Below the pieces are notes generated by a model. That model was given only the letters and a program-made list of their open reading frames with translations. It did no database searches and was not told where the DNA came from. Both the position numbers and the translations under genes were made by a program. From assembly GCA_035285865.1 (NCBI GenBank), contig JAYKHS010000024.1, positions 1-64,000 on the forward strand: a stretch of DNA of 64,000 bases, read 5' to 3'. This stretch comes from Candidatus Sericytochromatia bacterium. GTDB taxonomy: Bacteria; Cyanobacteriota; Sericytochromatia; S15B-MN24; VGJW01. The number at the start of each line of letters is the position of its first letter. Within the stretch, counting starts at the first letter, position 1. Shown here in pieces: positions 1-30,292 of the stretch.

Positions 1-745
1 CCCGCGCCCCGCGGTCGGCAGCATGCACGATGCCTGCCGAGACGCTGACAAAGGTCCCACCGCCCTCGCCGTCCAGCACCTTGACCGCCAGCAGCGTGAC
101 GCCGGGGGCAACACCCACCACGCCGCCATTGCCCAGGCCGGCCGCGACCGTACCGCCGCAATGGGTGCCGTGGCCGTCGTCGTCCGAAGGATCATCGTCC
201 TGATTGATGAAGTCCCGGCCGGCCTCGACACGGCCCGAAAAGTCGGGATGCGCGGCGTCGATGCCCGTATCGATGACGGCAACCTTGACCGCCCGATCAC
301 CGGGTGTCGTGGCCCAGACACGCCTCGCTCCGATGGCCTCCATGCCCCACAGCTGAGGCAACAGGTCGTCGGCCGCCAGCAGGGAGAGCCCACGGAACGC
401 CGGTTCGCGGGCAGCCCGGACGGGACCATCGGCCTCGACCCACCGCACGCCCGGCAGGCTCGCGAGGCGACGGGGAAGATCGGGCGCGTCACCCTGCATC
501 ACCAGCACGCCGAGGGCAGGTATTCGGTCGACGACGACGGCACCGACGGCGTCGCGCGCAGCCCGCGACAGCCCGGCAGGCGTGGTGGCCACGATCCAGC
601 GCGGAGCGGTGGCCCGGGTCGCTGCGGCGGTCCCCGCGGTGGCCCGTGGCGCCTGCAACGGCTGGCCGCCGCAGGCGACGAGTGTCAGCAGGGCGGGCAG
701 CAGGAGGGACGGCCAGAAACGATAGGGTCTGAAGGAAGGTCGCAC
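1..745 (-). CDS. S8 subtilase lipoprotein (5' part; runs off the window edge)
   Basis: Not in the ORF track; translated by hand on the minus strand from GTG 745. Lipobox LLTLVAC-G, then VAVIDTGID (catalytic Asp) and DGHGTHCGGTVAA (catalytic His), GVAPGVTLLAVKVL. TAACAT -10 box lies 6 nt before the GTG. Confidence 0.88.
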   Translation of the reverse strand, partial: MRPSFRPYRFWPSLLLPALLTLVACGGQPLQAPRATAGTAAATRATAPRWIVATTPAGLSRAARDAVGAVVVDRIPALGVLVMQGDAPDLPRRLASLPGVRWVEADGPVRAAREPAFRGLSLLAADDLLPQLWGMEAIGARRVWATTPGDRAVKVAVIDTGIDAAHPDFSGRVEAGRDFINQDDDPSDDDGHGTHCGGTVAAGLGNGGVVGVAPGVTLLAVKVLDGEGGGTFVSVSAGIVHAADRGAR

Positions 746-954
746 GAGCCCATGTTAAAGAATGATTACAGAAGGTGCAAAGAGGGTTCGCGGAGGATCC
801 AAGCCCACACTCAAAAATCAGTGTGGCCGCACCTCAAAGAGGCAAACCGCCGGAGGATTCTGCGTCTAGCTCCATTCATCCTGCATGGTTGGCGGCTCCC
901 TCGGACAACCCCGCGGCGCCAGTCGAGGCCACAGATGAGCGCCCCTCGCAACCG

Positions 955-1251
955 CTACTCGGGCGACTGCCCTGTCTGCGCCTGCTTGACCCTCGCGACG
1001 AGATCGGCGAGCGACGCGGGTGCCACGGGCGCATGCCGGAAATCCGGGTTGTCACCCTTCAAGGCGGCGACGGCTGCCTCGAGCGCCTGGGGCGAATCCG
1101 CCCACAGACTGAGCCACAGCAAGGTCTGCCCCCCCTCGAGGGGGGCCGTTCCAATGAGGATATTTGGAAACTGCTCACGCAGCGCCTGCCGCGTGGCGTC
1201 GAGTTCAGCCGAAGGGATCGCGAACTCGAGGACCTGTTCCGTGGTTGCCAC
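955..1251 (-). CDS. small hypothetical protein (98 aa)
   Basis: C-terminal part of ORF 955..1659 reads as a globular protein (VATTEQVLEFAIP...LLWLSLWADSPQALE). GTG at 1251 is 2 nt after the upstream stop. Confidence 0.55.
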   Translation of the reverse strand: MATTEQVLEFAIPSAELDATRQALREQFPNILIGTAPLEGGQTLLWLSLWADSPQALEAAVAALKGDNPDFRHAPVAPASLADLVARVKQAQTGQSPE

Positions 1252-1253
1252 GG

Positions 1254-1553
1254 TCAGGGCTTGACCGATGGAGGCGGTGGGCCTTGCAGTTGCTGGTCCA
1301 GCGGCGAAGGAAGGTTGTCGAAGGCAATGCCGCGACGCGAGGCCGCCTGCATGGACCGCCACTGTTCGGCACTGACGTAGACGGTTCTGGGCTCGCCGAG
1401 CATGTCGAGGATTCTGAGCGGCCGGTTCTGCAGCTTTTGCGGATCGGCCGAAGTCATACCTGAAGCGACACCGGCCATCGCGCTCAGGATGCCACCGGCC
1501 ACGGCTCCGGCTGCCGCTCCCGCAGTGCTGCGGTTCTGCACGAGGGCAGGCAC
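1254..1553 (-). CDS. small hypothetical protein with Gly/Ala hydrophobic (glycine-zipper-like) segment
   Basis: AGAAAGAVAGGILSAMAGVASG segment. GTG at 1553 is 14 nt after the HIRAN gene stop; start uncertain. Confidence 0.5.
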   Translation of the reverse strand: MPALVQNRSTAGAAAGAVAGGILSAMAGVASGMTSADPQKLQNRPLRILDMLGEPRTVYVSAEQWRSMQAASRRGIAFDNLPSPLDQQLQGPPPPSVKP

Positions 1554-1567
1554 CGCGAGACGTGAGG

Positions 1568-2011
1568 TCAGGCGAGGGGCTTCTTCCGGAGTTCGAGGGA
1601 AATGCGCAATCCGTAGTAGTACCCGGGACCGCCCCCCACCGTGTCGACGACGACAGCACCTGCGTTGGCGTAAAGACCTGAATCGATCGCTTCGTACACG
1701 GGGCGGTTTAGGGAACGTGGCACATATCCCACCATCCCGCACGTATGCCTCACGAGTACCGCAAAGGGATCGTCGTGTAGGGAGCCACCGTGGTCCTTCG
1801 AGGCTGTCTCACCGAACGGGTCCAATTCAAGAGCGAAGATGTCGCCGATCTCGCACTGCTCCACGATCTCCTGCCGAAAGCTGACACCGGCTACCGGCAT
1901 CACATCAGGCCACGGATTCTGGAGCTGCGGATTCTGGGGCTGCGGCTTCGACGGCGTCCCCGCTAGCAGAGCGAGCAGGATCAGGGCACCCACAACAAGC
2001 AAGACGGTCAC
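1568..2011 (-). CDS. membrane-anchored HIRAN domain protein
   Basis: N-terminal hydrophobic helix, P/Q linker, then the HIRAN pattern VAGVSFRQ...LELDP...HDDPFAVLV...VGYVPR. GAGGAG precedes GTG 2011 (ORF is open to 2059). Confidence 0.75.
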   Translation of the reverse strand: MTVLLVVGALILLALLAGTPSKPQPQNPQLQNPWPDVMPVAGVSFRQEIVEQCEIGDIFALELDPFGETASKDHGGSLHDDPFAVLVRHTCGMVGYVPRSLNRPVYEAIDSGLYANAGAVVVDTVGGGPGYYYGLRISLELRKKPLA

Positions 2012-2098
2012 CGCAACTCCTCGAACAGGGAGGTCAATCCGACCTCCCTCGACCGACACGGACGGGGCAACCGGGTCCTTGAGATTCCGTACCGGGAC

Positions 2099-2926
2099 TC
2101 ACGACCGAACGTCAGGCTCTCCGCGACGAACCTCTCCACCTGCTACCGTCAGCCAGGGTCCCCGCCAATGGCCACGAATCTCGTTCCCTGAGACAAGGAA
2201 GGCTCTTCCCTGACCAGATGCCAGAACACCGACCTGCCCGTTGTCCGCGATCTCGCAATCGACGGCGTGAAGCAGGCCTTCGTCCATCACAGCCAAGCCC
2301 GCGTAGGCATTTCCAAGGAACTTGCAGGCACGTGCCTTCAGCACGGTCCCGTTCCCGTTCACGACAGCACCATCCTGCCTGCAGTTCCGGACGACGGACC
2401 GCTCGATGCGGACATTGGCCATCGAGGTCACCTCAATTCCCGCCAGCCCTGCCTCCGAAATCTCGAGGTAATCCAGTTCCGCGCGCGCGAATCGGTATAC
2501 GAAGATGGCCGCCTTGGTCGTCGCCTGCACCGAGCATTGCCGCATGCTCAGATGGGACTGGTTGCCTCCGGCTGCCACCGCCGCCGCCGACGGGGACGAG
2601 AACGAACAGCGCTCAGCCATAAGTCGGCCGGCGGTCACGAGGTGGACCGCGTGTCCGGGAGTTCGGGGCAACCGTGGCGCTCGCACGTCGATACCTTCCA
2701 GTTGAAGCTGGCCACCGTAGAGTTCGATCGTGCTCGCCTCGGTACCTGTCAGCACAGGCCGCAAATCCCCGTGAGGCTTCATCGAATACGAACCAGAAAC
2801 GATGATGCTTTCCACGAAGGATTCCCCGTGCAGGATGATCGTGCCGCCATCCGGATGCGCGCGGAGTGCCTCGCCAATGGAAGCTATTCGGCCAGGGCCG
2901 ACGTGGATCTCGACTTCGGGAACCAT
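2099..2926 (-). CDS. right-handed parallel beta-helix repeat protein, no signal peptide
   Basis: SIGEAL...GGTIILHGESFVESIIV cap followed by PbH1-type repeats (CKFLGNAYAGL, CEIADNGQVGV). TGATG overlap with the upstream gene. Confidence 0.75.
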   Translation of the reverse strand: MVPEVEIHVGPGRIASIGEALRAHPDGGTIILHGESFVESIIVSGSYSMKPHGDLRPVLTGTEASTIELYGGQLQLEGIDVRAPRLPRTPGHAVHLVTAGRLMAERCSFSSPSAAAVAAGGNQSHLSMRQCSVQATTKAAIFVYRFARAELDYLEISEAGLAGIEVTSMANVRIERSVVRNCRQDGAVVNGNGTVLKARACKFLGNAYAGLAVMDEGLLHAVDCEIADNGQVGVLASGQGRAFLVSGNEIRGHWRGPWLTVAGGEVRRGEPDVRS

Positions 2927-4821
2927 CAGTTCCGGCTGTCCTTGCCATCCGGGGACGCAAAATCGCTGCCTTCCAGGTACTCGACCTCGTCGAGACCGTG
3001 CAGGGTTCGGTTTTCCGAACCGAGCAGGAACGCAAGGGTCTCGTCGTCCATCAGCGCTCCCCGGAAGCCCACCCGCCAGAGGATTGCGCCCGCAAAACTC
3101 GCCCCGCGAAGGTCGGTTCCCGACAGATCCACATCAAGAAGTACACAGCCCCGGAAGTCGACCTGACAGAGATTCCTGTCTCGCAAGTCGACGGAATGGA
3201 GAACCGTCGGCCGCCACGATTCCCCTCTGCGAACGCCATTGAAAAAACTGATGACCTCCCCGTGGCGTCCGGCATCGCTACGGGAAAGCTGTTGCTTCGC
3301 GAACCGACTCCGATCGCGCTGACTGCGAAGCATGGCCTTAAGACTCGTCCTCATCTGCCCGGGCACGAGACTCAGCAAGCGTTGTGCACTGACAGGGCTG
3401 CGGAAGAGCTGGTCCTTCAGGCGCTGGTCCTCCCGCAGCAGGTGCCCCACGCCAAGCCGAACCGAAGGGGAGAGGCTCGAATCCTCCGTCGACAATGAAC
3501 CGCGATCGCCACTCCTGCCACTGGCCTTCTGACGGGACCCGGGAGCGGGGACTCGTGAGGTACGCCTTGGCCGCCCGGGAACGCTCCACTCGCGGACAAA
3601 TCCCATTCGCGTGCTGCGGTAGAGTTGTCCGAGTGCGATGAGTCCGGCCAGTCCTACAAGAAGCAGACCAGAGCCAGGCGCATATTGCCTGACCTCGACG
3701 AGAAGGTCCCACGGAAGTTGTCCGTATCGGGAAGGGATCGGCCCCGACCATCCAACTCCGGGGACAGGGCGCCCCTTCTCGTCCATCAGAATCAGCGACG
3801 CCCTGTCTGCAAACAGGATGGTCTGGGCATGCAAATTGGGAATTTCGGCAGCGCCTCCGACAACTACCCGATTGCTTCCGACCCAATTATCCTTGAACGC
3901 CGGACTCCGAGGTACCCGGATCACCATAGGGACCCAGACGTCGAGTCCGAGCCCGTTGCGGTCCACCACGGAGGCTTCACAATGCACAAATCCGGCATTC
4001 CAGAACGCAAGACCAGCCTGCCGATTGTCAACCAGCGTGTTCTGTCGAAGCAAGGCTTCTGCAGAATCGCGCACCAGTATGCCCTGCCCGAGATTCGCCC
4101 GGCACAGATTGTCGCTGACTTCTCCTACCGTGCCTTCTGAAAGGACGATCCCGGGACCGTTATTCTGCACGCAGGTGTTATGGACGATGAGCGGCCGTGC
4201 TCGATGCTCGGCCATAATTCCGGGTAGCCAACCTCCCAGCCCATTTCCGCGCAGGACATTGTCGCGGATGGTGCCGGCGGCTCCCCCCGACAGATGCAGT
4301 CCTGGACCTGCATTAGCTTCGATGTAGTTGCCAATCACATCCACGGAGGAAGGTCCGTCGACCCGAATGCCGTCTCCATCACCACCCACGACACATTCCT
4401 GGATCGAGCCCGTGGCCGAAACGATCCGGATGGTTCCCATATCCTTCGGGATGCCCGTCGCCGTCAGTCTGATGCCTCGTACCACCCACCCGCCTTTCGA
4501 AAGGCAGGACAATGCAGGACCGTTCGAACCTTCAATGAGGGCATCTCGTCCTCCCTCAAGCACGACACTCCGCACGATACGCAGATTCTCGCGGTGGCGA
4601 CCCTTGACCCGAATGACATCCCCTCTACCTGCCCGATCAAGGACAGCTTGGACGGATTGGTCGGCACGAACCACATGCACCCGGGCCTCCGCCGGCGCCG
4701 TACTCACAAGCCCGAAGGCGGGCAGCAGAGCAGCAAGCAAGGCCAGCAAGAACTCACGTGCCTCAGCCAGGTGCAGACCCCGAGCAGCCTTCAGCCCCCC
4801 GCGAGAGCTGCAGTCGGTCAA
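2926..4821 (-). CDS. signal peptide + parallel beta-helix + TM + pentapeptide-repeat protein
   Basis: Signal-like LLALLAALLPAFGLVSTAPAEA; SVQAVLDRAGRGDVIRV cap; many I..N...G..G repeats; TM GLLLVGLAGLIALG; pentapeptide repeats VDLSGTDLRGASFAGAILWRVGFRGA. TTG 4821 overlaps the upstream TGA; start uncertain. Confidence 0.72.
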   Translation of the reverse strand: MTDCSSRGGLKAARGLHLAEAREFLLALLAALLPAFGLVSTAPAEARVHVVRADQSVQAVLDRAGRGDVIRVKGRHRENLRIVRSVVLEGGRDALIEGSNGPALSCLSKGGWVVRGIRLTATGIPKDMGTIRIVSATGSIQECVVGGDGDGIRVDGPSSVDVIGNYIEANAGPGLHLSGGAAGTIRDNVLRGNGLGGWLPGIMAEHRARPLIVHNTCVQNNGPGIVLSEGTVGEVSDNLCRANLGQGILVRDSAEALLRQNTLVDNRQAGLAFWNAGFVHCEASVVDRNGLGLDVWVPMVIRVPRSPAFKDNWVGSNRVVVGGAAEIPNLHAQTILFADRASLILMDEKGRPVPGVGWSGPIPSRYGQLPWDLLVEVRQYAPGSGLLLVGLAGLIALGQLYRSTRMGFVREWSVPGRPRRTSRVPAPGSRQKASGRSGDRGSLSTEDSSLSPSVRLGVGHLLREDQRLKDQLFRSPVSAQRLLSLVPGQMRTSLKAMLRSQRDRSRFAKQQLSRSDAGRHGEVISFFNGVRRGESWRPTVLHSVDLRDRNLCQVDFRGCVLLDVDLSGTDLRGASFAGAILWRVGFRGALMDDETLAFLLGSENRTLHGLDEVEYLEGSDFASPDGKDSRN

Positions 4822-5474
4822 GAATCGCTTCCTCGGGAGACCTCTTCGATCCAGTCCTTCGAATAGTACAACTCGATCTCGATGCGCTTCTGACTCTCCT
4901 TGTCGAGCAACGTCTTCTCGCCGGGACGATAGGGCCGGTTGTCTGCGAAGCCCACGGCCGACAGGTTGCGGAAGCCGACGAGATTCCCCAGGAGGAAAAC
5001 GACGGCCGTCGCGCGGAGACTGGACAGATGCCAGTTCGTCGGACATCGCGGATCCCACGTTAGGAAGGGATCGCTGTTGGTATGCCCACAGACGCGGATC
5101 TCCTTGAAGCCGTTGTCCCTGCTCAGGAATTCCTTGAGCAACGGAGCCAGCTTCAGGAGCTGCTGGCGTCCTGCGGGCTTCAGATCCCACTTGCCCTGCT
5201 CAAAGAGCAGACTGCTGCTGAAGGTGATGACCTGCACCTCCCCCTTGCCGGGAAACAGCGCGATCGACCGATTCGCACCGGTGTCGAAGCGGCTCTCGAA
5301 GGCCTTTTGGAACAACAGCTTCCTCCTGTCCAGTTCGAGCTTCAGCCTGTCATCGACGTTCAGAAAGGAGCTTACTGCGTGCATGAGGATGAAGACGAAC
5401 GCCAGGAGCATCATGATGTCAGCGTAGGCCGGCCAGAATTCCATCTCGCCACGTTGATCCCGTCCACGTCTCAT
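4818..5474 (-). CDS. MotB/ZorB-like protein with OmpA-like peptidoglycan-binding domain
   Basis: FWPAYADIMMLLAFVFIL (MotB-type TM with the conserved Asp), LLFEQGKWDL, IRVCGHTN, NWHLSSLRA, LSAVGFADNRP, RIEI. Confidence 0.88.
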   Translation of the reverse strand: MRRGRDQRGEMEFWPAYADIMMLLAFVFILMHAVSSFLNVDDRLKLELDRRKLLFQKAFESRFDTGANRSIALFPGKGEVQVITFSSSLLFEQGKWDLKPAGRQQLLKLAPLLKEFLSRDNGFKEIRVCGHTNSDPFLTWDPRCPTNWHLSSLRATAVVFLLGNLVGFRNLSAVGFADNRPYRPGEKTLLDKESQKRIEIELYYSKDWIEEVSRGSDS

Positions 5475-5479
5475 CTCGC

Positions 5480-7096
5480 TCAGGACCCGAGCGCGGCACC
5501 CAGTGCCCTGATGAGATCGCTGAAACGATCGCCGATCTGACGGTTCAGGTCCGTAACCTGTTGTTCATGCTTCTTTACCGAATCTGCCACTACCCGGGCG
5601 CCCGCATCGACAAGGCGCTCGTTGAAGCGATCCGGAAGGCCTGACAACTCCATCGTTGTAGTCAGCCACTGCATCCGGGCTCCTTCGAGGGCCTCACCGA
5701 GCGCGGCCATAATCCTGTGTGCCTCGTGACTGGCTCCCACGATCTCGTCGATACTCTGTCCCGCTCGGCCCAGACTCTGGGCCGCCTCGCCGCGGAAGCT
5801 GTCCCACGAAGCCGACTGACGGCGAAGCTCCTGAAGTTGAGGCTCCACGGCGCCCTTCAACCACGCCTCCAGGTCCCCGACGAAATGATCGTGGGAGGCG
5901 CGCAGCGTCGCGTAGCCCTCGTCCAGAGAGCGCCGGATCTCCTGCCCCGCGGTCGAGGCCTGCTCCGCCAGCTTCTCCAGCACCTTGAGGCTTCTTGAGA
6001 AGCTGGACAGCTGGCTCTTCATGATCTTGGCGGATTCGGTAAGACTGGGCCCCAGATTGGCCAGCTCGCCCACGACCTCTGCATGCTGCGTGCTCATCTG
6101 CTCGAGGATGCCCTCCATCCTCAGGAGGGCAAAGCCGAGGTATTCGTTCCTTGCGTCCTCCACTCGTGCCGAGAAGTGAGGGATCACCAGGCCCTGCAAG
6201 AAGCGATCCAGCTCCTCGATGTAGGCGTCCTGGACCTTAGATAACCAGTCGGTAAGCAGACCGAGAACCAGTGTCAGTACGAGGCCGGCAAAGGACGCCC
6301 GGAAAGCCAGTCCCATGGGCTGCAAGGAGTGGGCAAGGGCCGTCTGGATGGACTTGGATGCGTCATCGAAGGTCTGACCAGCTGCCCCGGCAAATACAGG
6401 CTCGAGTTCCGCAAGTGTCAGGGACAGGCTCAGACTCGTGAAGACAAGTCCCAGCAGCACCGCGTTGCGGCTCCAGAAACGCATCCATCGCAGGCTTTCA
6501 CGCTCCTGATTCCAGACCGCGTCCAGGTAGGCCGAGGGATTCACCTGACCACCGACTCGCTGCGCCTGGTGGAGAACCTCGACCCACTTGGACAGCCTGG
6601 AGCCAGTGAGTCCCTCGGACGCCAGAAGTCTGGAGAGGCGATCGCGGACCCATTGGCGAGAAGCATCTGCGCCTCGGTCTACCGGCTCGGCACCGGAAAG
6701 GGAGACTTCGTCATCCTCGACATCTTCGTCCCCGTCTTCGGGAGCGAAATAGACAATTTCCACGGGATTGCCGTCCTGGTCCTTGGCAACCAGAGTCTTG
6801 TCCTCTCCTATCGAGACATCAATGCTGATCTTGGACAGATCGAACCCCTCCACGACTTTCTGCGTGGCAACGTTCCACATGAAGGGAGCCCCATCTGGCC
6901 CGCAGGCGAGCACGATCTCGCCTGCGTCCTCGGCCGCTTCGTCCTCCTGAGATATCAGGAGGACTTGCTGGTCGACCTTCAAACGAAGTGCCTCGACCAG
7001 ACGGCGGTCGCGTCCGATTCGTCGATATTGCCGAACTGCCTCCAGAAGTGCCAACAGCAGCCAGACGCTGAAGACCACGATTGCCATTAGGTACAT
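5480..7096 (-). CDS. MotA/TolQ/ExbB-fold ZorA-like protein with long C-terminal helical tail
   Basis: N-terminal TM; TM pair LLGLVFTSLSL and MGLAFRASFAGLVLTLVL; about 250 aa heptad-rich tail; lies 5 nt upstream of the MotB-like gene. Confidence 0.78.
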   Translation of the reverse strand: MYLMAIVVFSVWLLLALLEAVRQYRRIGRDRRLVEALRLKVDQQVLLISQEDEAAEDAGEIVLACGPDGAPFMWNVATQKVVEGFDLSKISIDVSIGEDKTLVAKDQDGNPVEIVYFAPEDGDEDVEDDEVSLSGAEPVDRGADASRQWVRDRLSRLLASEGLTGSRLSKWVEVLHQAQRVGGQVNPSAYLDAVWNQERESLRWMRFWSRNAVLLGLVFTSLSLSLTLAELEPVFAGAAGQTFDDASKSIQTALAHSLQPMGLAFRASFAGLVLTLVLGLLTDWLSKVQDAYIEELDRFLQGLVIPHFSARVEDARNEYLGFALLRMEGILEQMSTQHAEVVGELANLGPSLTESAKIMKSQLSSFSRSLKVLEKLAEQASTAGQEIRRSLDEGYATLRASHDHFVGDLEAWLKGAVEPQLQELRRQSASWDSFRGEAAQSLGRAGQSIDEIVGASHEAHRIMAALGEALEGARMQWLTTTMELSGLPDRFNERLVDAGARVVADSVKKHEQQVTDLNRQIGDRFSDLIRALGAALGS

Positions 7097-7099
7097 GGC

Positions 7100-9082
7100 C
7101 TAGCCCTTGGCATCTTCGACCGGGCGTGCCGCCGTGCCGTTGCCGAGCGGGGGACGCTTCCGAAAGGTGGGACGGACTACTTCAGGCCCCGAATCGATGG
7201 CGGGCTGACCCTGAAGTCTGTCATCCTCCCACGTCGAGCTTTCCCACCGTCTCCGCCCCACACAACGGATCAGCCATTCCTGATTCAGACGATCCATGCC
7301 CTTCACGACACACACGACGAGAAACCCGAGCGTGAAGATGGCGGGAAGAACCACAGGGAGGATGTCGCCGTTAGACACCGTGTTGGCCTGAATGTAGCTG
7401 TAGTTCGACGCGAACTCAAGAAGAATGATGAGCGTGCCGACAACGGATAGAATCACCGGCCCGCGCAGCCTCGTCAGAAGTTCGGCCCTGTCGAGCACTT
7501 CGTATCGACGAGCGGCCATCCTGTCGACGACACCAGAATATCCATTACGGAGGAAGCCGTTCCTCTCGTAGTTCATAACGATGCTGGGAATCGCTTCCAC
7601 CACCGCCCACTCCGCCAGAAGAATCAGAATCAACCAGGCGGTCCAGGCACCTGGGGAAACGACAAATCTGACTCCCCCGTAGAAGAGCCTGATCTTCCCG
7701 AGGAAGGGAAGTAGACCTACCAGCACGAGGCTGGCAGGATAGGTCAGGCCCAAAATAGCAATGAGGTTTGCAATCCTTAAGAAGATGCCCCGCGAATCAA
7801 TGTTCTTCTGCCACTTCACCAACTCGGCCCATTCGCCGGCCTTGAAGTGACGATTGGTTTCCCAATCCTCAAGTCTGCGCTTGAGTTCCGAATACAACCG
7901 GAACCGGATCTCTTCCCATTCACGAAGCCTCGCGCTTCGCTGTTCTTTATCAATCGCAGAGTCTTTCGACTTCTTTTTGACGGCGCCCTGCTTCTCCTTC
8001 TGATGGAGTTGTTTCTTCTTGTCCACTTCCTTCTTGCGGACGACAATAAGCCTCGCGAAGGCAGCCTCCCGGGTAGCCATCAGCGCACGCCGCTCCTTGT
8101 CCAGAGCCCGGACCCGATCGGACCAATCGGACAGTTCAGCACGCCACTGTTTCCGCAGGGCATCGACCGTCCGGCCCATCACGGGAATCTCGGGGATGGC
8201 CAGCAGGTAGGGGTGAGGCAAGGCACAGAGCGCCAGCACGCCCATGGCCACGACAAGGTGGAGGAAAAATGCCTGAATATCGTTTTGGCCCATTCCGAAA
8301 CTGGCCTGCCAGCGATAGACGACCGAAACGCTGATCAGGACGACCATCGCAAACGCCGCGACGGAGCCAAGTCCAAGGAAGACCGGGCCACCCTGGCGAC
8401 GGGACCACGCCGAATAGAAGGCGGAGCGTCGTTCCTCATCGGTGGGCGGAACCGATCCACGAACCTGTCCTTGCAAGTTTTCCCACTCCTCCACCACCAG
8501 CACGATAACCGCCACCGACTGACCAAGGCCCAGACGAACTAGGGAAGGTTCCGCACGTCGGGCCTGCCACGCCTCCTCGATCCGTGTGAGGAGCTGGGCA
8601 ACCAGAACGCCGAGGAAGCCCACGACACACCCACCCAACCCGACAACCCACCACGGAGGAGCAGCGGGCACGAGCCTCCACGAAAGCACCACGGTCAGAA
8701 TCGCAAGGCTCAGGAATCTCAGCCCAGTGACGACGAAGTGGCGCAAGCGCAATCTCGACAGCAGAAGCCTGGGCGCATTCGGCTTATCACCCGGATACGG
8801 GAGATTTTCGAGTTCCGCTTCAATACGTGCGACCTCGATCTCCTCGGGTGCTTGCCGAGCACCAGAGGAACCTTCGACCTCAGGCTCCGCAGCGACGGCA
8901 GCTGGCTCTCTCTCGGGAACAGGCTCATCCTCGCCGGGGTCCTCCGGAGAAACGGGGATGGCATCGAAAGCCACGTCCCTGTTACCGAGATGGGCGATGT
9001 AGCTCTGGTGGAGTTCCCGGACCTCCTCGTCGATCCGGTAGAACGCTGCCGTCGGGTACTTTTCAGCCACGAGTCTGGTCAT
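7100..9082 (-). CDS. multi-pass membrane protein with central Lys/Glu-rich coiled coil, unknown function
   Basis: ATG 9082 overlaps the upstream stop (ATGA). About 8-9 hydrophobic segments in two groups flank a charged helical region (RKKEVDKKKQLHQKEKQ). Confidence 0.75.
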   Translation of the reverse strand: MTRLVAEKYPTAAFYRIDEEVRELHQSYIAHLGNRDVAFDAIPVSPEDPGEDEPVPEREPAAVAAEPEVEGSSGARQAPEEIEVARIEAELENLPYPGDKPNAPRLLLSRLRLRHFVVTGLRFLSLAILTVVLSWRLVPAAPPWWVVGLGGCVVGFLGVLVAQLLTRIEEAWQARRAEPSLVRLGLGQSVAVIVLVVEEWENLQGQVRGSVPPTDEERRSAFYSAWSRRQGGPVFLGLGSVAAFAMVVLISVSVVYRWQASFGMGQNDIQAFFLHLVVAMGVLALCALPHPYLLAIPEIPVMGRTVDALRKQWRAELSDWSDRVRALDKERRALMATREAAFARLIVVRKKEVDKKKQLHQKEKQGAVKKKSKDSAIDKEQRSARLREWEEIRFRLYSELKRRLEDWETNRHFKAGEWAELVKWQKNIDSRGIFLRIANLIAILGLTYPASLVLVGLLPFLGKIRLFYGGVRFVVSPGAWTAWLILILLAEWAVVEAIPSIVMNYERNGFLRNGYSGVVDRMAARRYEVLDRAELLTRLRGPVILSVVGTLIILLEFASNYSYIQANTVSNGDILPVVLPAIFTLGFLVVCVVKGMDRLNQEWLIRCVGRRRWESSTWEDDRLQGQPAIDSGPEVVRPTFRKRPPLGNGTAARPVEDAKG

Positions 9083-9762
9083 GAGCGAATGAGATCCTCC
9101 AACTGCTTCAAAGCCGTTCGTCGACTGGCCTGTACGGGGTTTAGCACCGCACAATGATTGGCGGGAAATCGATCCAGCAAAGGCTGGAAGACCCGATCGC
9201 TGCCTGGCTCAAGGAAAACGAATCCCAGCCGATGACGGTTGGCACGCCCCCCGGGCCATTGACGCGCAGATGAGCTGCGCCAGTTTCCACCCCCCCCAGG
9301 AACCGGTTCGTTCTTCCCATCACCAAAGACCAGGCCCGTCGTGTCGAAACCCTTGCGTTGTAGCTCGATGCACCTCTCAAGCAGATATTTCAAGCCAAGG
9401 CCATAGGCCGTGCCCCTGGCATCCGTCACCACCCAACCGGAATACGCATCCATCACCGACCTTAGATCGGGCCGGGAAGGCGAATTCAGACGGTAGATAG
9501 GATAGACCTCATGCGTCAGCCGCAAGAGTTCAATACGGTCCGCGTTTTCATCAAGACCCTCCGCAATCCCCAGAATCAACTCTCGACTCCGAGGCAGGTA
9601 CCTCGCCGACGACAGCGAGCAGTCGACGAGGCACACCACAGCCTGCTTGCGAGGCACATTTCCGTAATCACCACATCCGGCTGCGAACAACGCTGCGAGG
9701 GCTAACGATACTCCTACTGGCTTTCGCAATAGTGCAGCCAAGACGATCAAGTGCCCCCTCAT
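9079..9762 (-). CDS. vWA (MIDAS) domain lipoprotein
   Basis: Lipobox LFAAG-C; VVCLVDCSLS (DxSxS), GTAYGLGL (Thr) and LVFGDG (Asp) form a complete MIDAS motif. Confidence 0.75.
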   Translation of the reverse strand: MRGHLIVLAALLRKPVGVSLALAALFAAGCGDYGNVPRKQAVVCLVDCSLSSARYLPRSRELILGIAEGLDENADRIELLRLTHEVYPIYRLNSPSRPDLRSVMDAYSGWVVTDARGTAYGLGLKYLLERCIELQRKGFDTTGLVFGDGKNEPVPGGGGNWRSSSARQWPGGRANRHRLGFVFLEPGSDRVFQPLLDRFPANHCAVLNPVQASRRTALKQLEDLIRS

Positions 9763-9921
9763 GCATCACGAACACAATCACAATACGCCATTTTATTGCC
9801 AATGACTCATGTAGATCATGAAATATGCAGTCGCAACCACACCCCGACGTACCACTAACAACGGTTTGACCTGCCCCCGTTTATCGTCTAACTCGCAACC
9901 GGCCACCCACACCACCCCCCC

Positions 9922-11445
9922 TCACCCCAAAATCAAACTCCTCGCCGTCATCTCCCTCGGCTTCTCGACCCCTAACAGGTCCAGCAACGTCGGCGCGATG
10001 TCGCACAGTTGCCCGTCCGGCCGCAGCTTCACGTCGCGCCCGACCAGGATGGCCGGCACGGGGAACAGCGTGTGGGCCGTATGAATGCCCCCTGTGGTGG
10101 AGTCGATCATCATCTCGGCGTTGCCGTGGTCGGCCGTCACCAGCATGACGCCCCCGCGGGCAGCCACGGCATCGGCGACTTCGCCCACCGCGGCATCCAC
10201 CGCCTCGATGGCCTTCACCGTCGCGCCATAGTCGCCCGTGTGGCCCACCATGTCGGCGTTGGCAAAGTTCAGGATGAACAGGTCGCTGCTGCCATCCCGA
10301 ATGCGACGGGCGGCCTCATGTGCCACCTGCGGCGCGCTCATCTCGGGCTGCATGTCATAGGTCGCGACCTTGGGCGAAGGCACAAGGATCCGCTCCTCAC
10401 CCGGAAAGGGCGTCTCCACCCCTCCGTTGAAGAAAAACGTCACATGAGCGTACTTCTCGGTCTCGGCGCAGCGTAGCTGCCGCAGGCCCGCATCAGCCAC
10501 CACCGGCGCCAGAATGCGGTCCAAGGACTGCTTGGCATAGGCGACGGGCAGGCCGTAGTCGGCCTTGTACTCTGTAAGGCACGCATAGCGGACGCGGGGG
10601 AACGGCTCCCGCTCGAAGCCTGAGAAGCCCTCCAGCGCAAGGGCCGCCGTGATCTGCCGCGCCCGGTCCGGCCGGAAGTTGAAGCACAAGACGGCATCCT
10701 CGTCGCGGATGCGGCCCTCGTCCGACACCAGCGTCGGCAGGATGAACTCATCCGTCTCGCCGCGGGCATAGGCCTGCTTCACGGCCTCGCTGCCCGTCGC
10801 CGCACGGTGATCGGCTTCGGCCCTGACCATGGCGGCCCACGCCTTGCGGGTGCGTTCCCAGCGCTGGTCCCGGTCCATCGCGTAGTAGCGGCCCGACACC
10901 GTGGCGATGCGGCCCGTGCCGAGGCGCACCATCGCCTCTTCCAGCTTGCGCAGCGACCCCGCGCCGGATGTCGGCGACACGTCGCGGCCATCCGTGAACG
11001 CATGCACCCAGACCCGGTCCAGGCCCTCGCGCCGGCACAGGTCCAACAGCGCCACCAGATGATCCTCGTGGCTATGGACGCCGCCATCCGACACGAGGCC
11101 GATCAGGTGCAGCGCGGTGCCGCGGGCCTTGGCATGCCGGATCTGGTCCAGCAGCACCGCGTTGGTGAAGAAGTCCCCATCGTGGATGCTCTTGGAGATC
11201 CGTGTGAAGTCCTGATAGACGACGCGGCCCGCGCCCATGTTCAGGTGGCCGACCTCGCTGTTGCCCATCTGGCCATCCGGCAAACCCACGGCCTGACCCG
11301 ACGTCGGGATGCTGGTCACGGACCCGATGTCGATGAGGCGATCGAGCCGCGGCGTGTGCGCATCGCGGATCGCATTGCCTCGGGCATGGGGGTCCGGGTT
11401 GATGCCGTAGCCATCGAGAATCACGAGGACGACAGGGGGTCGCAT
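9922..11445 (-). CDS. gpmI: 2,3-bisphosphoglycerate-independent phosphoglycerate mutase
   Basis: [66 protein letters not shown] before ATG 11445. Confidence 0.97.
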
Positions 11446-11487
11446 GAAATTCCCTCCCAGATGATGCCGCACCAACCGCGCCACGCA

Positions 11488-11505
11488 CCCTGAGCCGGCT
11501 CAGGG
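11488..11505. promoter_or_regulatory. perfect 18-bp palindrome between tpiA and gpmI (hairpin)
   Basis: CCCTGAGCCGGCTCAGGG is self-complementary and has no U tract. Possibly an mRNA stability or attenuation hairpin. Confidence 0.4.
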
Positions 11506-11537
11506 CGTGCAACCCGCCGCCAGATTCGCCGCCGGCC

Positions 11538-12305
11538 CTAGGCCGTCACGCGGTCGAAGGCGACCAGCTTCGCGAAGGAGCCTGCCTCCAGCGACGCGCC
11601 GCCCACGAGGGCGCCATCGATCTGGGGCTGGGCCATCTGCTCGGCGATGGTCTCGGGCTTGACCGAGCCGCCGTAAAGAATGCGCACGTCATCCGCAGGT
11701 CCGGGCCCGACATGACGGGCAATCGTCTCGCGGATGAGTCCGCACACGCGGTTGGCTTCGTCCGAGGCGCAGGTCTTGCCCGTGCCGATGGCCCACACGG
11801 GCTCGTAGGCGAAGACCAGCCCGCCCACCTGCTCGGCCGGGATACCCGACAGCGCACGCTGGACCTGCAGGATGATGACGTTGTCCGTCAGTTGGAGCTC
11901 GCGCTCTTCCAGCTTCTCGCCCACGCAGACGATGGGCACCAGGCCATGCTTGAGCGCGGCCTTGAGCTTCTCGTTGACGCTGGTGTCCGTCTCGCCGTAG
12001 TACTGCCGACGCTCGGAATGGCCGAGGATGACGTGGGTCGCACCGACCTCGCGGAGCATCCCGGGTGAGGTCTGGCCGGTGTAAGCCCCTTGGTCATGGC
12101 TGTCGCAGTCCTGCCCGCCGACCTTCACGACGGTGCCCTCGAAGGCCTCGGCGAGCGTCGCCAGCGCCGTGAAAGGCGGGCAGACCACCACCTCGATGCC
12201 CCGTGCCGACTTGGCTTCGGCAGGCAGCGCCTCGGCAAAGGCCCGGGCCTCGGCACGGGTCTTGTGCATTTTCCAGTTGCCGGCCATCAGGGGCACGCGG
12301 GCCAT
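11538..12305 (-). CDS. tpiA: triosephosphate isomerase
   Basis: AGNWKM, ILGHSERR, AYEPVWAIGTG, LYGGSV, LVGGASL. Confidence 0.98.
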   Translation of the reverse strand: MARVPLMAGNWKMHKTRAEARAFAEALPAEAKSARGIEVVVCPPFTALATLAEAFEGTVVKVGGQDCDSHDQGAYTGQTSPGMLREVGATHVILGHSERRQYYGETDTSVNEKLKAALKHGLVPIVCVGEKLEERELQLTDNVIILQVQRALSGIPAEQVGGLVFAYEPVWAIGTGKTCASDEANRVCGLIRETIARHVGPGPADDVRILYGGSVKPETIAEQMAQPQIDGALVGGASLEAGSFAKLVAFDRVTA

Positions 12306-12317
12306 GGACGAATCCTC

Positions 12318-13534
12318 CTATGCGCGAGACGAGGAGAGGGCGGCCTTCTCGAGCGCCGCCACACCGGGCAGCACCTGGCCCTCGAGGAACTCGAGCGACG
12401 CTCCGCCACCGGTCGAAACGTGCGTGACCTTGTCGGCCAGACCCGACTGTTCGAGCGCCGCCACCGAGTCGCCGCCACCCACCACGGTGCGGGCACCGGC
12501 GGCCGTCCGTTCGGCCAGCATCGCGGCAACGGCAAGCGTGCCAGCGGCAAATGCCGGGTTCTCGAAGACTCCTAGAGGACCGTTCCAGAGGATGGTCTCT
12601 GCACCCGACAACGCCGCACGGATGGCGTCGACACTGGCAGGGCCGACGTCGAGGCCGATGGCGTCGGCAGGCATGTCGGCATCGGTGAACGTGCCCGTGA
12701 CCTCGCCCTTGGGGTCGGTGCCGACCAAGGTGTCCGTCGGCAGCAACAATGTCGTCCCCGAGGCCTTGGCCGCCTCGAGCACACGCAGCGCGACCGGAAT
12801 CTGGTCGTCCTCGACCAGAGACTTGCCCACAGGCTTGCCCATCGCCTTCCAGAACGTGAAGGCCATCGCGCCACCGATCACCATGCCGTCGACCTTGCCC
12901 AGCAAGTGCTCGAGCACGCCGATCTTGCTGCTGACCTTGGAACCGCCGATGATCGCCCAGAACGGCCGACCGGGCTGCTCGAGCAGACCGCCCAGCACCT
13001 CGAGCTCGCGGGCCATCAGGAAGCCGGCATAGGCCGGCAGGTGGTCCGCCACCCCCGCAGTCGAGCCGTGCGCCCGATGCGCGGTGCCAAAGGCATCGTT
13101 GACATACAGGTCGCCCAGCCGCGCGAGCGCTGCCACGAAACCGGGCTCGTTGGCCTCTTCCTCGGGGTGGAAGCGCACGTTCTCCAGCAGCAGCACCTCG
13201 CCGTCCGCCAGCGCGGCCACGGCCGCCTCGACCTCGGGCCCCACCACGCCGGGGGCCAGCTTGACGGACTGTCCCAGCAGGCCGGCCAGATGCGTGGCCA
13301 CGGGCGCCAGCGTCAGCTTGGCGTCATGCCCCTTCGGGCGACCCAGGTGCGCCGCCACCACGACGCGCGCCCCGCCCGCCACCAGGTGACGGATCGTGGG
13401 CAACGCGGCGCGGATGCGGGTGTCATCGGTGGGCTTGCCGTCCGCGAGCGGAACGTTCAGATCCTCGCGGACCAGGACGCGCTTGCCCTTGAGGTCGGCG
13501 GGGCCGAGATCGGCCAGCGAACGGAAGCCCGGCA

Positions 13535-13535
<1 letters not shown>
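12318..13535 (-). CDS. pgk: phosphoglycerate kinase
   Basis: VREDLNVP, HLGRPKG, LLENVRF, NDAFGTAHR, WNGPLGVFE, GGGDS, STGGGASLE. ATG overlaps the gap stop (TGATG). Confidence 0.97.
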
Positions 13536-14728
<1,193 letters not shown>

Positions 14729-14762
14729 TCACGCGCCGTCGCATCCATGGGAGTTCTCGCAC

Positions 14763-15182: not shown

Positions 15183-15276
15183 GCCCCGGGTGCGCGCGAT
15201 CAAGCGGCGGATGTGGCCGATCGCACAGGCCATCGGTAGCTTCGACCGTCCTTCTGGGTAGGCTGGGAACAGGACC

Positions 15277-16575: not shown

Positions 16576-16699
16576 TTGCCCCGGCCTTCAAGGCTGGCAT
16601 CTGTAAGGGTCAGGAACGGCGCGGTTCAAGGACGCCGGGCCGCTGTCCTGCGCAGGCGCGAACCGCCACGCCCTGAAGCGCCGAGAAACGTCGAACGCT

Positions 16700-25201: not shown

Positions 25202-25329
25202 TCTCGGACCATAGCATGGCGCCTGCAGGAGACAGTGGGAGCAATTCATCGTCATGTCCTGCTTCCACAACTGGCCCCGACCATGTCATCCATGGAAAGA
25301 CACCCACCTCGCCCCTTGCAGGAGACTGC

Positions 25330-30248: not shown

Positions 30249-30253
30249 CGGCA

Positions 30254-30284
30254 TCTGCTGCTGGCGACGTACGCCACCGGCAGA
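30254..30284. terminator. hairpin between convergent sbcC and rnhB
   Basis: TCTGCTG-C-TGGCG / CGCCA-C-CGGCAGA imperfect stem; no clear U tract. Confidence 0.35.
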
Positions 30285-30292
30285 CATTCGCC

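Follow-up and report, generated by a model that had tools for sequence, protein, structure and literature searches.

A candidate envelope-anchored defence operon with a divergent ZorA/ZorB-like motor pair in a Candidatus Sericytochromatia genome

Nine co-directional genes (g1 to g9) occupy the minus strand from position 9762 to position 955 of the window, the 64,000-nt stretch of Candidatus Sericytochromatia DNA analysed here. The junctions are tight from g1 to g6, at -4 (ATGA), 3, 5, -4 (TTGA) and -1 nt (TGATG), and measure 87, 14 and 2 nt from g6 to g9; ORF calls, overlaps and gaps agree with a preliminary description of the locus, which had also placed the genes in lower-GC DNA. Indeed, the operon genes have a GC of 0.58–0.67 and a GC3 of 0.61–0.80, compared to 0.67–0.68 and 0.86–0.88 for the flanking glycolytic genes gpmI and tpiA. 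The operon is accessory and foreign in composition, and the host gene gpmI bounds the insertion upstream (9922..11484, minus strand; 2,3-bisphosphoglycerate-independent phosphoglycerate mutase, Pfam iPGM_N, E 3e-83). A 209-nt gap separates g9 from the 5' part of a subtilase gene (2..745, minus strand; Pfam Peptidase_S8, E 9e-21), which runs off the contig start, has a GC of 0.72 and gave generic subtilase and IetS rows in PADLOC; the window contains two further S8 genes at other places.

The third and fourth genes appear to encode a motor pair. The g3 product (5480–7096, minus strand; 538 aa), a divergent ZorA-like A subunit of the 5:2 ion-motor type, has three predicted transmembrane (TM) segments (residues 1–24, 211–231 and 260–286), with Thr220 in TM2 conserved across the family, and then a 252-aa helical cytoplasmic tail. 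Pfam MotA_ExbB did not match g3, and apart from coiled-coil rows its family matches were ZorA models only, in both PADLOC (ZorA2, E 7e-3) and NCBIfam (ZorA_1, E 5e-6). All ZorA/ZorB matches are far under the curated cut-offs, e.g., 25 versus 190 bits for ZorA_1 and 24.7 versus 400 in another case. The same models recognised relatives of g3: those of PADLOC matched 23 of the 25 homologues scanned, and when 45 homologues were compared with NCBIfam, every family-specific row was a ZorA model (7, 6, 5, 1, 1 and 1 members per model), MotA, ExbB and TolQ models were absent, and the other rows were coiled-coil or sporadic.

We also compared an AF2 model of g3 (core pLDDT 80–90) with known structures. 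VIA-align gave ExbB (6ye4; Z 13.2 over 211 residues), TolQ (9kpz; Z 12.4 over 193 residues), ZorA (Z 11.5, 10.9 and 10.2) and MotA (Z 7.6), Z values under about 13 being common for helical bundles, while Foldseek returned nothing at E<=0.001. As modelled, the core fits ExbB, TolQ and ZorA equally well, and ZorA cannot be told from ExbB/TolQ by fold. The MotA fold proposed earlier thus gives way to the three-TM ExbB/TolQ/ZorA type instead of the four-TM MotA.

The g4 product (4818–5474, minus strand; 218 aa) is a ZorB/MotB-like B subunit, as previously proposed. Its single TM segment bears Asp19 (WPAYAD motif), its OmpA-like peptidoglycan-binding domain has an N-x2-LS-x2-RA-x2-V motif at 147, and there are two cysteines, at 129 and 144. 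PADLOC ZorB1 matched over residues 8–205, i.e., full length (E 4.8e-15), followed by ZorB3 (E 2.4e-13); Pfam gave OmpA (27.8 bits, cut-off 27.2) and MotB_plug (E 0.004), the NCBIfam rows MotD, MotS and MotB covered the OmpA part only, and the PDB matches were MotS, MotB, PomB and ZorB (8qyd_F, E 0.0014). Other MotB-like genes are present in the same genome (C28:12494-13048 and C22:107248-107634; 36% identity) and in congeners.

Judged on family matches, g3 and g4 are a very divergent ZorA/ZorB-like pair, grouping weakly but consistently. ExbB-ExbD and TolQ-TolR share the three-TM topology and come closest in structure to the g3 core, but g4 is OmpA-like and MotB/ZorB-like rather than ExbD/TolR-like, g3 has its long tail and no MotA_ExbB match, and no TonB, TolA or Pal gene lies near the operon. 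MotA-MotB and PomA-PomB resemble g4 in the OmpA-like domain (MotB, MotS, PomB) and the TM aspartate, whereas g3 has three TM segments instead of four, a weaker fold match to MotA and no MotA family match. A flagellar MotAB or ExbBD identity, which the preliminary description had named as a possible refutation, was rejected, the only meaningful family matches being ZorA/ZorB models.

Upstream of the motor genes, g1 (9079–9762, minus strand; 227 aa) encodes a predicted lipoprotein with lipobox Cys30 and an intact MIDAS-type motif (D47xS49xS51, T118 and D148), both kept in a 58%-identical homologue (L002:3468-4127). As to its earlier assignment as a vWA lipoprotein, the vWA domain is only moderately supported: Pfam did not match g1 itself, the homologue reached Pfam VWA at E 0.002, under the cut-off, and the AF2 model is poor (pLDDT 39). 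Among the named clusters of the ESM Atlas, VWA families make up 6 of the 7 rows listed (best score 0.95), and the ten best family-bearing matches all share the family or clan of the best, as they do for a third of shuffled proteins. The start of g2 (7100–9082, minus strand; 660 aa) overlaps the g1 stop. Hydropathy predicts a polytopic membrane protein with about 8 TM segments, in two blocks flanking a 140-aa K/R-rich coiled-coil loop, and its large soluble parts are all predicted to be cytoplasmic. It is an orphan, with no family in Pfam, PADLOC or NCBIfam and no informative relative in the ESM Atlas.

Downstream of the motor genes, Pfam and hydropathy bore out the domains and TM segments previously assigned to g5, g6 and g7. 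The TTG start of g5 (2926–4821, minus strand; 631 aa) overlaps the g4 stop; the bitopic product matches Beta_helix (E 7e-18), NosD (E 4e-12) and Pentapeptide (E 1.4e-6), has hydrophobic segments at 21–44 (signal/anchor) and 380–401 (TM), and would consist of the signal/anchor, a periplasmic right-handed beta-helix (NosD/CASH-like), the TM segment, a basic Ser-rich linker and a C-terminal pentapeptide-repeat domain. The codon-position signal of g5 is weak (GC3 0.65), and ORFs antisense to it had no Pfam match. The second beta-helix protein, g6 (2099–2926, minus strand; 275 aa; Beta_helix, E 1.7e-27), shows no significant similarity to g5 (BLASTP E 0.057) and is predicted to be cytoplasmic, since it has neither a signal peptide nor a TM segment. 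The g7 product (1568–2011, minus strand; 147 aa) combines an N-terminal TM anchor with a HIRAN domain (E 9.8e-6; 25.8 bits, cut-off 24.7), presumably facing inwards, and gave no PDB sequence match; its GTG start (alternative at 2059) has GAGGAG 5 nt upstream. The last two genes have no family match and a coding-like composition: g8 (1254–1553, minus strand; 99 aa; GC1/2/3 0.70/0.56/0.73), with an N-terminal Gly/Ala-rich, glycine-zipper-like stretch, and g9 (955–1251, minus strand; 98 aa; GC1/2/3 0.73/0.49/0.80), a soluble ORF.

As the preliminary description had noticed, none of the nine proteins matched a helicase, HNH or other nuclease family at E<0.1 in any of Pfam, PADLOC and NCBIfam; the exception among such rows is an RNA-ligase row for g6, which is not significant (E 0.023). 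A match of known ZorC–G models to the partner genes, another possible refutation that it had named, was not found in PADLOC, where no partner gene had a convincing model (best g7 row PDC-M03B, E 0.007). Overall, none of the usual immune effectors (nuclease, helicase, NTPase, TIR, SIR2 or others) is encoded by the operon.

Zorya types I–III, as outlined in PMC11946911 and PMC11890865, combine ZorAB with ZorC/ZorD, ZorE or ZorF/ZorG. The operon resembles them in the adjacent A and B genes, A first; in an A subunit with a three-TM core and a long helical cytoplasmic tail; in a B subunit whose one TM segment carries the aspartate essential in Zorya, next to an OmpA-type domain; in its non-flagellar, accessory context; and in the recognition of g3, g4 and their relatives by ZorA/ZorB models alone. 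It differs in its sub-cut-off scores, in a g3 tail of ~250 residues versus ~500 in E. coli ZorA, in the vWA lipoprotein and polytopic coiled-coil genes that precede the motor genes, in having neither nuclease nor any of ZorC/D, ZorE and ZorF/G, and in its two beta-helix proteins (one bitopic, with pentapeptides), TM-HIRAN protein and two small ORFs.

Such an operon is met very rarely, and it was acquired horizontally. When g3 was searched for in 41 genomes, it was present in one, the operon's own (G000), and in none of the 40 relatives (3 congeners, 4 genomes of the same family, 19 of the same order and 14 of the same class). One homologue each was found for g3 and g2, and the search with g5 returned nothing. 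The sole g2 homologue (P0004, 44% identity) lies directly after the g1 homologue at locus L002, and g1-g2 are the only operon genes met together elsewhere. Their neighbours there are genes for an ADP-ribosylglycohydrolase, a phosphatase matching the Pfam 'Swiss Army Knife protein' and 'Polymorphic toxin system' DSP-PTPase families, and a WD40 protein, a setting that we count in favour of defence.

Based on three relatives, the site downstream of gpmI is a variable hotspot. Nucleotide homology with the congener G001 ends at the gpmI stop (window position 9916), and the next 12 kb of that genome hold a cytosine methylase gene and MzaB-E (PADLOC, E 4e-20 to 9e-176), which make up a complete Mza defence system immediately after gpmI, in the place that the operon takes here. 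This favours a conflict role for the operon. In the more distant relative G005, gpmI is directly followed by homologues of C22:4230-9267 of the operon's genome, including flagellar export genes; the join between C24, the operon's contig, and C22 was inferred from this synteny. The edge of C22 carries a Mutator transposase fragment and, in low-GC3 DNA, an ATP-grasp gene and a polysaccharide-deacetylase gene, whose nearness to the operon is suggested by synteny.

Distant relatives of g3 sit, in the same gene order, in cassettes with a tubulin-like protein (FtsZl1), a vWA protein and an OmpA-domain protein. The cassette A subunit was matched in 18 of 45 sampled genomes, all belonging to a single family from a different class of this phylum. 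Ten loci were taken from 34 other genomes with such a match, and seven held a cassette of ~382 aa, ~1080 aa, A (536–651 aa) and B (222–268 aa) proteins. Pfam Tubulin_2 was found in both cassettes scanned (E 2.5e-111 and 7.4e-110) and at locus L003 (E 1e-77), the other five being assigned from ORF sizes and order only; the ~382-aa proteins start with D-x-T-x-S, like vWA beta1/MIDAS. Profile-profile comparison (hhalign) makes the g3 clade homologous to the cassette A subunits (98.5% probability, E 2e-15). FtsZl1 operons are described as containing vWA and OmpA-domain proteins together with many lineage-specific TM proteins, and they were predicted to remodel membranes (Makarova and Koonin 2010, PMC2875224).

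These cassettes weaken a premise of the preliminary description, which took a non-flagellar pair of a long-tailed A subunit and an OmpA-type B subunit as sufficient in itself to signal Zorya. A ZorAB-like pair is therefore no proof of defence. Of the undescribed ZorAB-motor conflict system proposed on that premise, the ZorAB-like core and the lack of ZorC–G stand, and they are joined by the foreign insertion and by the Mza system at the same site in a congener.

The operon could accordingly be a tubulin-less variant of this 'membrane-remodelling' envelope system with no immune role. The stator-like motor would then work on the envelope together with the vWA protein and the long coiled-coil partner, with g2 in place of the tubulin-like GTPase and the beta-helix and HIRAN genes added in this lineage. 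The component order (vWA-type, large coiled-coil, ZorA-like A, OmpA-like B) is alike, as are the A subunits at profile level. However, neither the operon nor the rest of its genome (82.7% complete) has a Tubulin_2 gene, the place of the GTPase being held by the 8-TM g2; single-sequence phmmer did not match g3 to the cassette A subunits; g1, a short lipoprotein versus a ~380-aa protein, and g2 have no detectable similarity to cassette proteins, and g4 has weak matches only (E 5e-4). Moreover, the operon adds beta-helix, pentapeptide and HIRAN genes and was inserted, as rare foreign DNA, at a defence hotspot, whereas the cassette is widely held, which suggests a trait of the lineage more than a defence island. 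We consider this explanation unlikely, although it deserves weight; it is also compatible with defence.

A less probable alternative is that the genes do not form one system: g1–g4 or g1–g6 would be a unit, and g7–g9, with or without g5–g6, unrelated co-oriented island cargo. The joint occurrence of g1-g2 alone elsewhere, the 87-nt gap before g7 and the lack of any family for g8 and g9 are consistent with this, and g5–g9 have no conservation support because of the empty g5 search. Against it are the start/stop overlaps at g4/g5 and g5/g6, the close spacing of g7-g8 and g8-g9, the lowered GC3 common to all operon genes and the search for a terminator-like site between g6 and g7, which found none.

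Least probable of all is that the stator powers some process at the cell surface, such as adhesion, surface motility or the modification or export of polysaccharides, in the manner of Tol-Pal, Agl-Glt or GldLM, with the beta-helix proteins as carbohydrate-acting parts and the vWA lipoprotein as adhesin or assembly factor. The beta-helix/NosD matches of g5 and g6, a weak AlgG epimerase row for g5 (NCBIfam, E 0.012), its predicted periplasmic beta-helix, the envelope location indicated by g1 and g4, the ATP-grasp and polysaccharide-deacetylase genes at the C22 edge and the several large non-flagellar stator clades whose functions are given as not known in a phylogenetic survey (10.1101/2024.07.22.604496) point that way, but g6 has no export signal, the operon has no glycosyltransferase, transporter or outer-membrane component and occurs in 0 of 40 relatives, an envelope machine of this kind would have no use for HIRAN and pentapeptide domains, and the long cytoplasmic tail directs output inwards, as in Zorya.

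The explanation that we prefer, and hold tentatively at slightly less than an even chance, is an envelope-anchored anti-phage or anti-mobile-DNA system on a Zorya-type motor. By homology, g3 and g4 would form a proton-driven 5:2 complex in the inner membrane, tied to peptidoglycan by the OmpA-like domain of g4, with Asp19 as proton relay; g3 would rotate around g4 with its tail reaching ~250 residues into the cytoplasm. Architecture further suggests that the g1 vWA domain and the periplasmic beta-helix of g5 may report envelope or cell-wall disturbance, and that the motor tail may relay the signal to membrane-proximal g2, the g5 pentapeptide domain, g6 and g7; a g1-g2 link across the membrane would lack an obvious surface, because the large soluble parts of g2 are all predicted to be cytoplasmic. 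Given that the operon has no nuclease, the output would be non-degradative, e.g., HIRAN capturing a 3' DNA end or the pentapeptides mimicking DNA at the entry site, or alternatively membrane-directed, via g2 or the glycine-zipper-like g8.

In Zorya, defence is reported to need the ZorB TM aspartate, the ZorA tail and the soluble effectors, all three (PMC11946911, PMC11890865). Against a defence role we count the lack of any usual immune effector, the sub-cut-off Zor scores, the gap before g7, the ambiguous fold, the homology of g3 to FtsZl1 cassettes and a hotspot argued from three relatives. A defence role is probable, though unproven. A ZorAB-type motor with these partner proteins is a combination never seen before, and the operon is probably an undescribed defence variant, because it is rare and acquired, joins a Zorya-type motor to novel partners and occupies a site at which a known defence system is found in a sister genome.

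The operon comprises nine genes on the minus strand, running from 9762 down to 955 as delimited by ORF listing, inspection of start codons and hydropathy: g1 (9079-9762, 227 aa), g2 (7100-9082, 660 aa), g3 (5480-7096, 538 aa), g4 (4818-5474, 218 aa), g5 (2926-4821, 631 aa, with a TTG start), g6 (2099-2926, 275 aa), g7 (1568-2011, 147 aa), g8 (1254-1553, 99 aa) and g9 (955-1251, 98 aa). The successive junctions from g1 to g9 measure -4, 3, 5, -4, -1, 87, 14 and 2 nt, exactly the overlaps and gaps listed in the preliminary description. The operon genes have a GC of 0.58-0.67 and a GC3 of 0.61-0.80, compared with a GC3 of 0.86-0.88 in the adjoining gpmI and tpiA, which lie upstream together with pgk and gap. 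Downstream, the operon abuts, after a gap of 209 nt, the 5' part of a subtilase (Peptidase_S8) gene (2-745) that is cut by the contig start; the 64-kb window holds three such genes in all, the others being located at 36086-37339 and 51995-53257. As the window starts at the start of its contig, C24 of the source genome, the operon lies at a contig edge.

A promoter and terminator scan returned no promoter-like sites and four terminator-like sites, fewer than in shuffled sequences and none at a gene boundary. No direct repeats that could represent att sites were found flanking the operon, and positions 1-20000 contain no tRNA genes. The stretch is present in three DNA sequencing runs, all from one study, with no RNA run among those found to contain it. 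The island is covered by identical low-depth contig pieces in X1 and X2; no listed contig of those runs spans it, and none usefully extends beyond the contig start.

A second stretch of lowered GC3 (0.72-0.76) was observed in the window at 23612-31567. It encodes a 552-aa protein with an adenylate/guanylate cyclase domain, a 181-aa ORF, an ATPase of the SbcC/AAA_23 type (1325 aa) and a protein of 407 aa that matches no family, and may be another accessory or defence-like module. At 32069-36057, a Ski2-like DEAD/DSHCT helicase (976 aa) adjoins and, as called, overlaps an ORF with an N6/N4 DNA methylase domain.

We examined the motor A subunit, g3, against family models. No match to Pfam MotA_ExbB (PF01618) was obtained at E<0.1. 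Its family-specific matches were to ZorA models only, namely NCBIfam antiphage_ZorA_1 (E 5e-6, 25.1 bits for a cut-off of 190, residues 154-296) and PADLOC ZorA2 (E 7e-3, tail only), and g3 falls below the curated thresholds of the ZorA families. Searching 1.84 billion representative proteins exhaustively with HMMER yielded 47 matches at E<=1e-3, 14 at E<=1e-10 and two at E<=1e-30. ZorA models of PADLOC matched 23 of the 25 relatives scanned, the other two having no match. With NCBIfam, the family-specific rows of 45 relatives were all ZorA models (7, 6, 5, 1, 1 and 1 members per model), with no MotA, ExbB or TolQ model among them and the other rows belonging to coiled-coil and sporadic families; these ZorA-model matches are weak.

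Six residues are invariant in the 45-sequence family (G216, L217, T220, L224, A264 and F265). Thr220 lies in TM2, where A subunits of such motors have a conserved Thr, and we infer that it is equivalent to Thr147 of the ion filter of E. coli ZorA (PMC11946911). Scanning the genome contigs with g3 gave no match. The first alignment of the g3 clade, A2, was too divergent for the pattern search and was dropped; the narrower alignment A3 matched a single locus in the genome contigs, that of a Pseudanabaena MAG. A sequence search of the PDB with the g3 core found no match, and a PDB search with the A2 profile was set aside because coiled-coil noise dominated.

The AF2 model of g3, built from 14 sequences, has a membrane core with a pLDDT of 80-90, three TM segments and a long, low-confidence helical tail of 252 aa at residues 287-538, with helices spanning residues 243-537. 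Foldseek returned no row at E<=0.001, the top rows being TolQ and ExbB at E 0.03-0.1. Exhaustive VIA-align searching, in which Z values of this size are not rare for helical bundles, aligned the model with ExbB 6ye4 (Z 13.2, 211 residues), TolQ 9kpz (Z 12.4, 193 residues), ZorA 8qyd (Z 11.5, 212 residues), ZorA 8vvn (Z 10.9, 194 residues), ZorA 8vvi (Z 10.2, 95 residues) and MotA 6ysf (Z 7.6, 185 residues). From these matches, the modelled fold of g3 is that of the 3-TM A subunit of 5:2 motors; fold search cannot tell ZorA from ExbB or TolQ, as the latter two score as high. The MotA fold initially ascribed to this protein thus holds as regards a stator-type A subunit and fails as regards the MotA type, given three TM segments and a Z of 7.6 against 13.2 for ExbB.

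For g4, the best full-length match was PADLOC ZorB1 (E 4.8e-15, residues 8-205), followed by ZorB3 and ZorB2. The Pfam OmpA cut-off was barely reached (27.8 bits for 27.2), the MotD, MotS and MotB rows of NCBIfam were restricted to the OmpA part, and the NCBIfam ZorB1 equivalog scored 24.7 bits for a cut-off of 400. The Asp of the WPAYAD motif, singled out in the preliminary description, is Asp19 and falls within the TM helix, while the OmpA-type peptidoglycan-binding motif begins at residue 147. Judged from its sequence, g4 is clearly a B subunit of the MotB/ZorB type. Other MotB-like genes occur elsewhere in the source genome and its congeners.

The A subunit of Zorya combines a 3-TM core with a long C-terminal helical tail, both present in the g3 model, and its B subunit carries a TM Asp and a peptidoglycan-binding domain, both predicted in g4. 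Zorya, however, also has a type-defining soluble partner (ZorC+ZorD, ZorE or ZorF+ZorG), and the operon has none: g1, g2 and g5-g9 gave no match to ZorC, ZorD, ZorE, ZorF or ZorG at E<0.1 in PADLOC, Pfam and NCBIfam, and, in line with the preliminary description, no nuclease or helicase family was found on the partner proteins in the same three collections. The pair is Zorya-like through a combination of features, namely the 3-TM core, the 252-residue tail and a partner of the OmpA type rather than the ExbD type. Flagellar MotAB has a 4-TM MotA that matches MotA/ExbB models and a flagellar context, whereas g3 has three TM segments and no PF01618 match, and the operon itself has no flagellar neighbour genes. 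In ExbBD and TolQR, the B subunit lacks an OmpA domain and the partner is TonB or TolA; in contrast, an OmpA domain is present in g4, whose matches are to MotB/ZorB models, and no TonB or TolA family match was found in the operon.

Among the partner genes, g1 encodes a lipobox (Cys30) and a MIDAS-type motif (D47xS49xS51, T118, D148), both kept in its sole homologue (58% identical), which matched Pfam VWA at E 0.002, below the cut-off. In a language-model atlas, the ten best family-bearing named clusters for g1 all belong to the family or clan of the top one, an agreement also reached by a third of shuffled proteins, and VWA families occupy six of the seven rows printed (best score 0.95). A profile search of the PDB gave weak rows only, including a collagen VI vWA chain (E 0.036), and the AF2 model (pLDDT 39) was unusable for fold search. 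On its sequence features, g1 is probably a vWA lipoprotein. For g2, no family was matched in Pfam, PADLOC or NCBIfam, and the ESM Atlas held no informative relative. Judged from hydropathy and the charges of its loops, g2 would have about eight TM helices arranged as two blocks; its acidic N-terminal part (114 aa), a K/R-rich coiled-coil loop of 140 aa at 297-436 and its C-terminal tail of 61 aa would then all be cytoplasmic.

The g5 protein starts with a signal/anchor segment, followed by a beta-helix of the NosD/CASH type and a TM helix; a basic linker then leads to the pentapeptide-repeat domain, and the part predicted to be cytoplasmic comprises residues 402-631. Its codon-position signal is unusually weak (GC3 0.65, lower than GC1 0.69), and g5 is for this reason possibly missed by gene callers and automatic annotation. 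It should be noted that a simple GC3-based caller favours three antisense ORFs at this place (2926-4821), all without a Pfam match. A homologue search with g5 was uninformative on conservation, as all 8000 scored candidates fell short of E<=0.001, the window's own g5 included. Moreover, g6 is a beta-helix protein without an export signal, and g7, predicted to be membrane-tethered, combines a TM anchor with a HIRAN domain barely above the Pfam cut-off and had no match in a sequence search of the PDB. The small ORFs g8 and g9 have a coding-like composition and no family.

We compared the site downstream of gpmI, the host gene that bounds the insertion, among related genomes. Nucleotide homology between the window and the congener G001 stops at 9916, just beyond the gpmI stop codon (9922-9924), and the next 12 kb of G001 encode a C-5 cytosine methylase and MzaB, MzaC, MzaD and MzaE (PADLOC E-values of 3.7e-111, 8.7e-176, 4.3e-20 and 3.1e-64, respectively); against Pfam, the same Mza proteins match HATPase_c_3, Z1, DUF4420 and AIPR. 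This complete Mza-type defence system (positions 413-9687 of L043, G001:C55:29000-42774) lies directly downstream of gpmI, in the position that the operon occupies in G000, the source genome. In G005, a member of the same family, homologues of the flagellar export genes at 4230-9267 of another source-genome contig, C22, begin within ~500 nt downstream of gpmI. The contigs of G002 and G003 break right at gpmI. Given the differences among G001, G005 and G000, the site is variable, being occupied by the operon in G000 and by a recognised defence system in its sister genome.

C22 begins with 4 kb of lowered GC3 (L046, G000:C22:1-4100), just before fliR/fliQ/fliP. This stretch contains a transposase fragment of the Mutator family, together with a RimK-like ATP-grasp gene and a gene with a polysaccharide-deacetylase domain. 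Judging from synteny with G005, it is probably part of the inserted region that includes the operon, and the window's contig and C22 would be adjacent, a junction that no run contig bridges.

The operon is very rare. Among 41 genomes (the source genome, 3 congeners, 4 of the same family, 19 of the same order and 14 of the same class), g3 was present in the source genome alone. A collection of 5.8 billion clusters contained a single relative of g3, P0002, which is 54-60% identical and comes from a 14.5-kb contig. A single relative is likewise known for g2, P0004 (44% identical), on the 6.1-kb contig L002. In L002, a g1 homologue stands directly upstream of the g2 homologue, and a new ORF starts 6 nt past the stop of the latter, the contig ending 18 nt past that homologue. 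The upstream part of L002 (2-3190) encodes an ADP-ribosylglycohydrolase and a DSP-PTPase assigned to the Pfam families 'Swiss Army Knife protein' and 'Polymorphic toxin system', as well as, on the opposite strand, a WD40 protein of 578 aa. Of the co-occurrence of flanking genes, put forward as a check in the preliminary description, only the pairing of g1 with g2 was recovered, in L002. No relative was found in viral contigs scanned with the g3-family profiles A4 and A3, nor in plasmids by tblastn. The operon is real, well defined and of unusual architecture, and it is known from essentially one complete locus of an uncultured organism.

The wider g3 clade led to a different type of locus. Of 401 genomes of the phylum, 35 had a match to the A2 profile at E<=1e-5, the source genome among them; the 46 other members of its class gave no match, and one family of another class gave matches in 18 of 45 genomes. 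For 10 of the 34 remaining matches, chosen as those with the best E-values plus two weaker ones, we examined the surrounding 19 kb, and seven of these regions contain the same four-gene cassette, with ORFs of ~382, ~1080, 536-651 and 222-268 aa (L028, L029 and L031-L035, at about 4300-11600 in each). In the two cassettes scanned, the 1080-aa protein matches Pfam Tubulin_2 (E 2.5e-111 and 7.4e-110) and one of the B-like proteins has a weak OmpA match; the other five were assigned by ORF sizes and order only. The ~382-aa proteins open with a vWA-like beta1/D-x-T-x-S element. The Pseudanabaena MAG locus (L003:3549-12340) likewise encodes a Tubulin_2 protein, a ZorA-like protein (PADLOC ZorA1, E 3e-14) and a weakly ZorB-like protein.

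The cassettes are the FtsZl1 operons that Makarova and Koonin (PMC2875224) described with vWA and OmpA-domain proteins, and for which they proposed a role in membrane remodelling. The stator-like nature of the two cassette membrane proteins does not appear in the accessible part of that 2010 description (PMC2875224), and we found in the literature no functional study of FtsZl1 later than that analysis. Aligned with the g3 clade by hhalign, the cassette A subunits are homologous to it (probability 98.5%, E 1.9e-15, 219 columns); they went undetected with g3 as a single sequence. This qualifies the notion that a ZorAB-like pair is a signature of Zorya: the likeness stands, and its sufficiency does not, as homologous pairs occur in FtsZl1 cassettes.

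One could then regard the operon as a tubulin-less relative of the FtsZl1 cassettes with a non-immune envelope role. Like an FtsZl1 operon, it brings together a vWA-like protein (g1, on moderate evidence) and an OmpA-domain protein (g4), and g1-g4 follow the cassette in their order of component classes, with g2 standing where the tubulin-like protein is. An FtsZl1 operon has a Tubulin_2 GTPase gene, however, and this one does not: no Tubulin_2 match was found in the operon proteins or in the source genome (82.7% complete), control genomes being positive. We consider this reading unlikely, albeit the strongest of the alternatives.

The most likely reading, which we hold tentatively, is that of a defence or conflict system with a Zorya-type motor and a new set of partners. 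It is based on the ZorAB-likeness of the pair, the foreign composition and rarity of the operon, and its place in a defence-bearing hotspot. Against it count the lack of a recognisable immune effector, the scores below the ZorA and ZorB family thresholds, and the use of homologous stator pairs in tubulin-like cassettes. A composite of unrelated units, which overlaps partly with the other alternatives, appears improbable, and a surface-polysaccharide or adhesion machine powered by the stator is the least probable of all.

More specifically, the operon might be a working immune system that represents a new type of Zorya, with a sensor-fed, ZorAB-like proton motor and a nuclease-free output, a proposal that we regard as rather doubtful. 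Here, periplasmic vWA and beta-helix sensors would feed the motor, and the output would pass through a membrane-tethered DNA-end-binding protein (HIRAN) and a DNA-mimic protein (pentapeptide) or, alternatively, through a polytopic membrane effector, these outputs acting where DNA enters. In the accessible parts of two accounts, the Zorya types described are I-III only (PMC11946911, PMC11890865). Full-text searches of the literature for a type IV Zorya, or for ZorA- or ZorAB-like systems, returned nothing relevant.

The link between the g3 clade and the FtsZl1 cassettes shows that the use of long-tailed stator pairs extends beyond Zorya, and annotation pipelines should therefore not call such a pair alone defence. 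To our knowledge, the outputs described so far for ZorAB-type motors are of the nuclease type only. If the operon is indeed a new type of Zorya, then together with the FtsZl1/vWA/stator cassettes it would define a broader class of conflict systems that are driven by a stator, sense the envelope and have interchangeable cytoplasmic modules. Moreover, periplasmic proteins of the g1 and g5 type would provide candidate sensors for the way in which a ZorAB-type motor senses infection, and the operon would test the motor as a general signal transducer with exchangeable modules.
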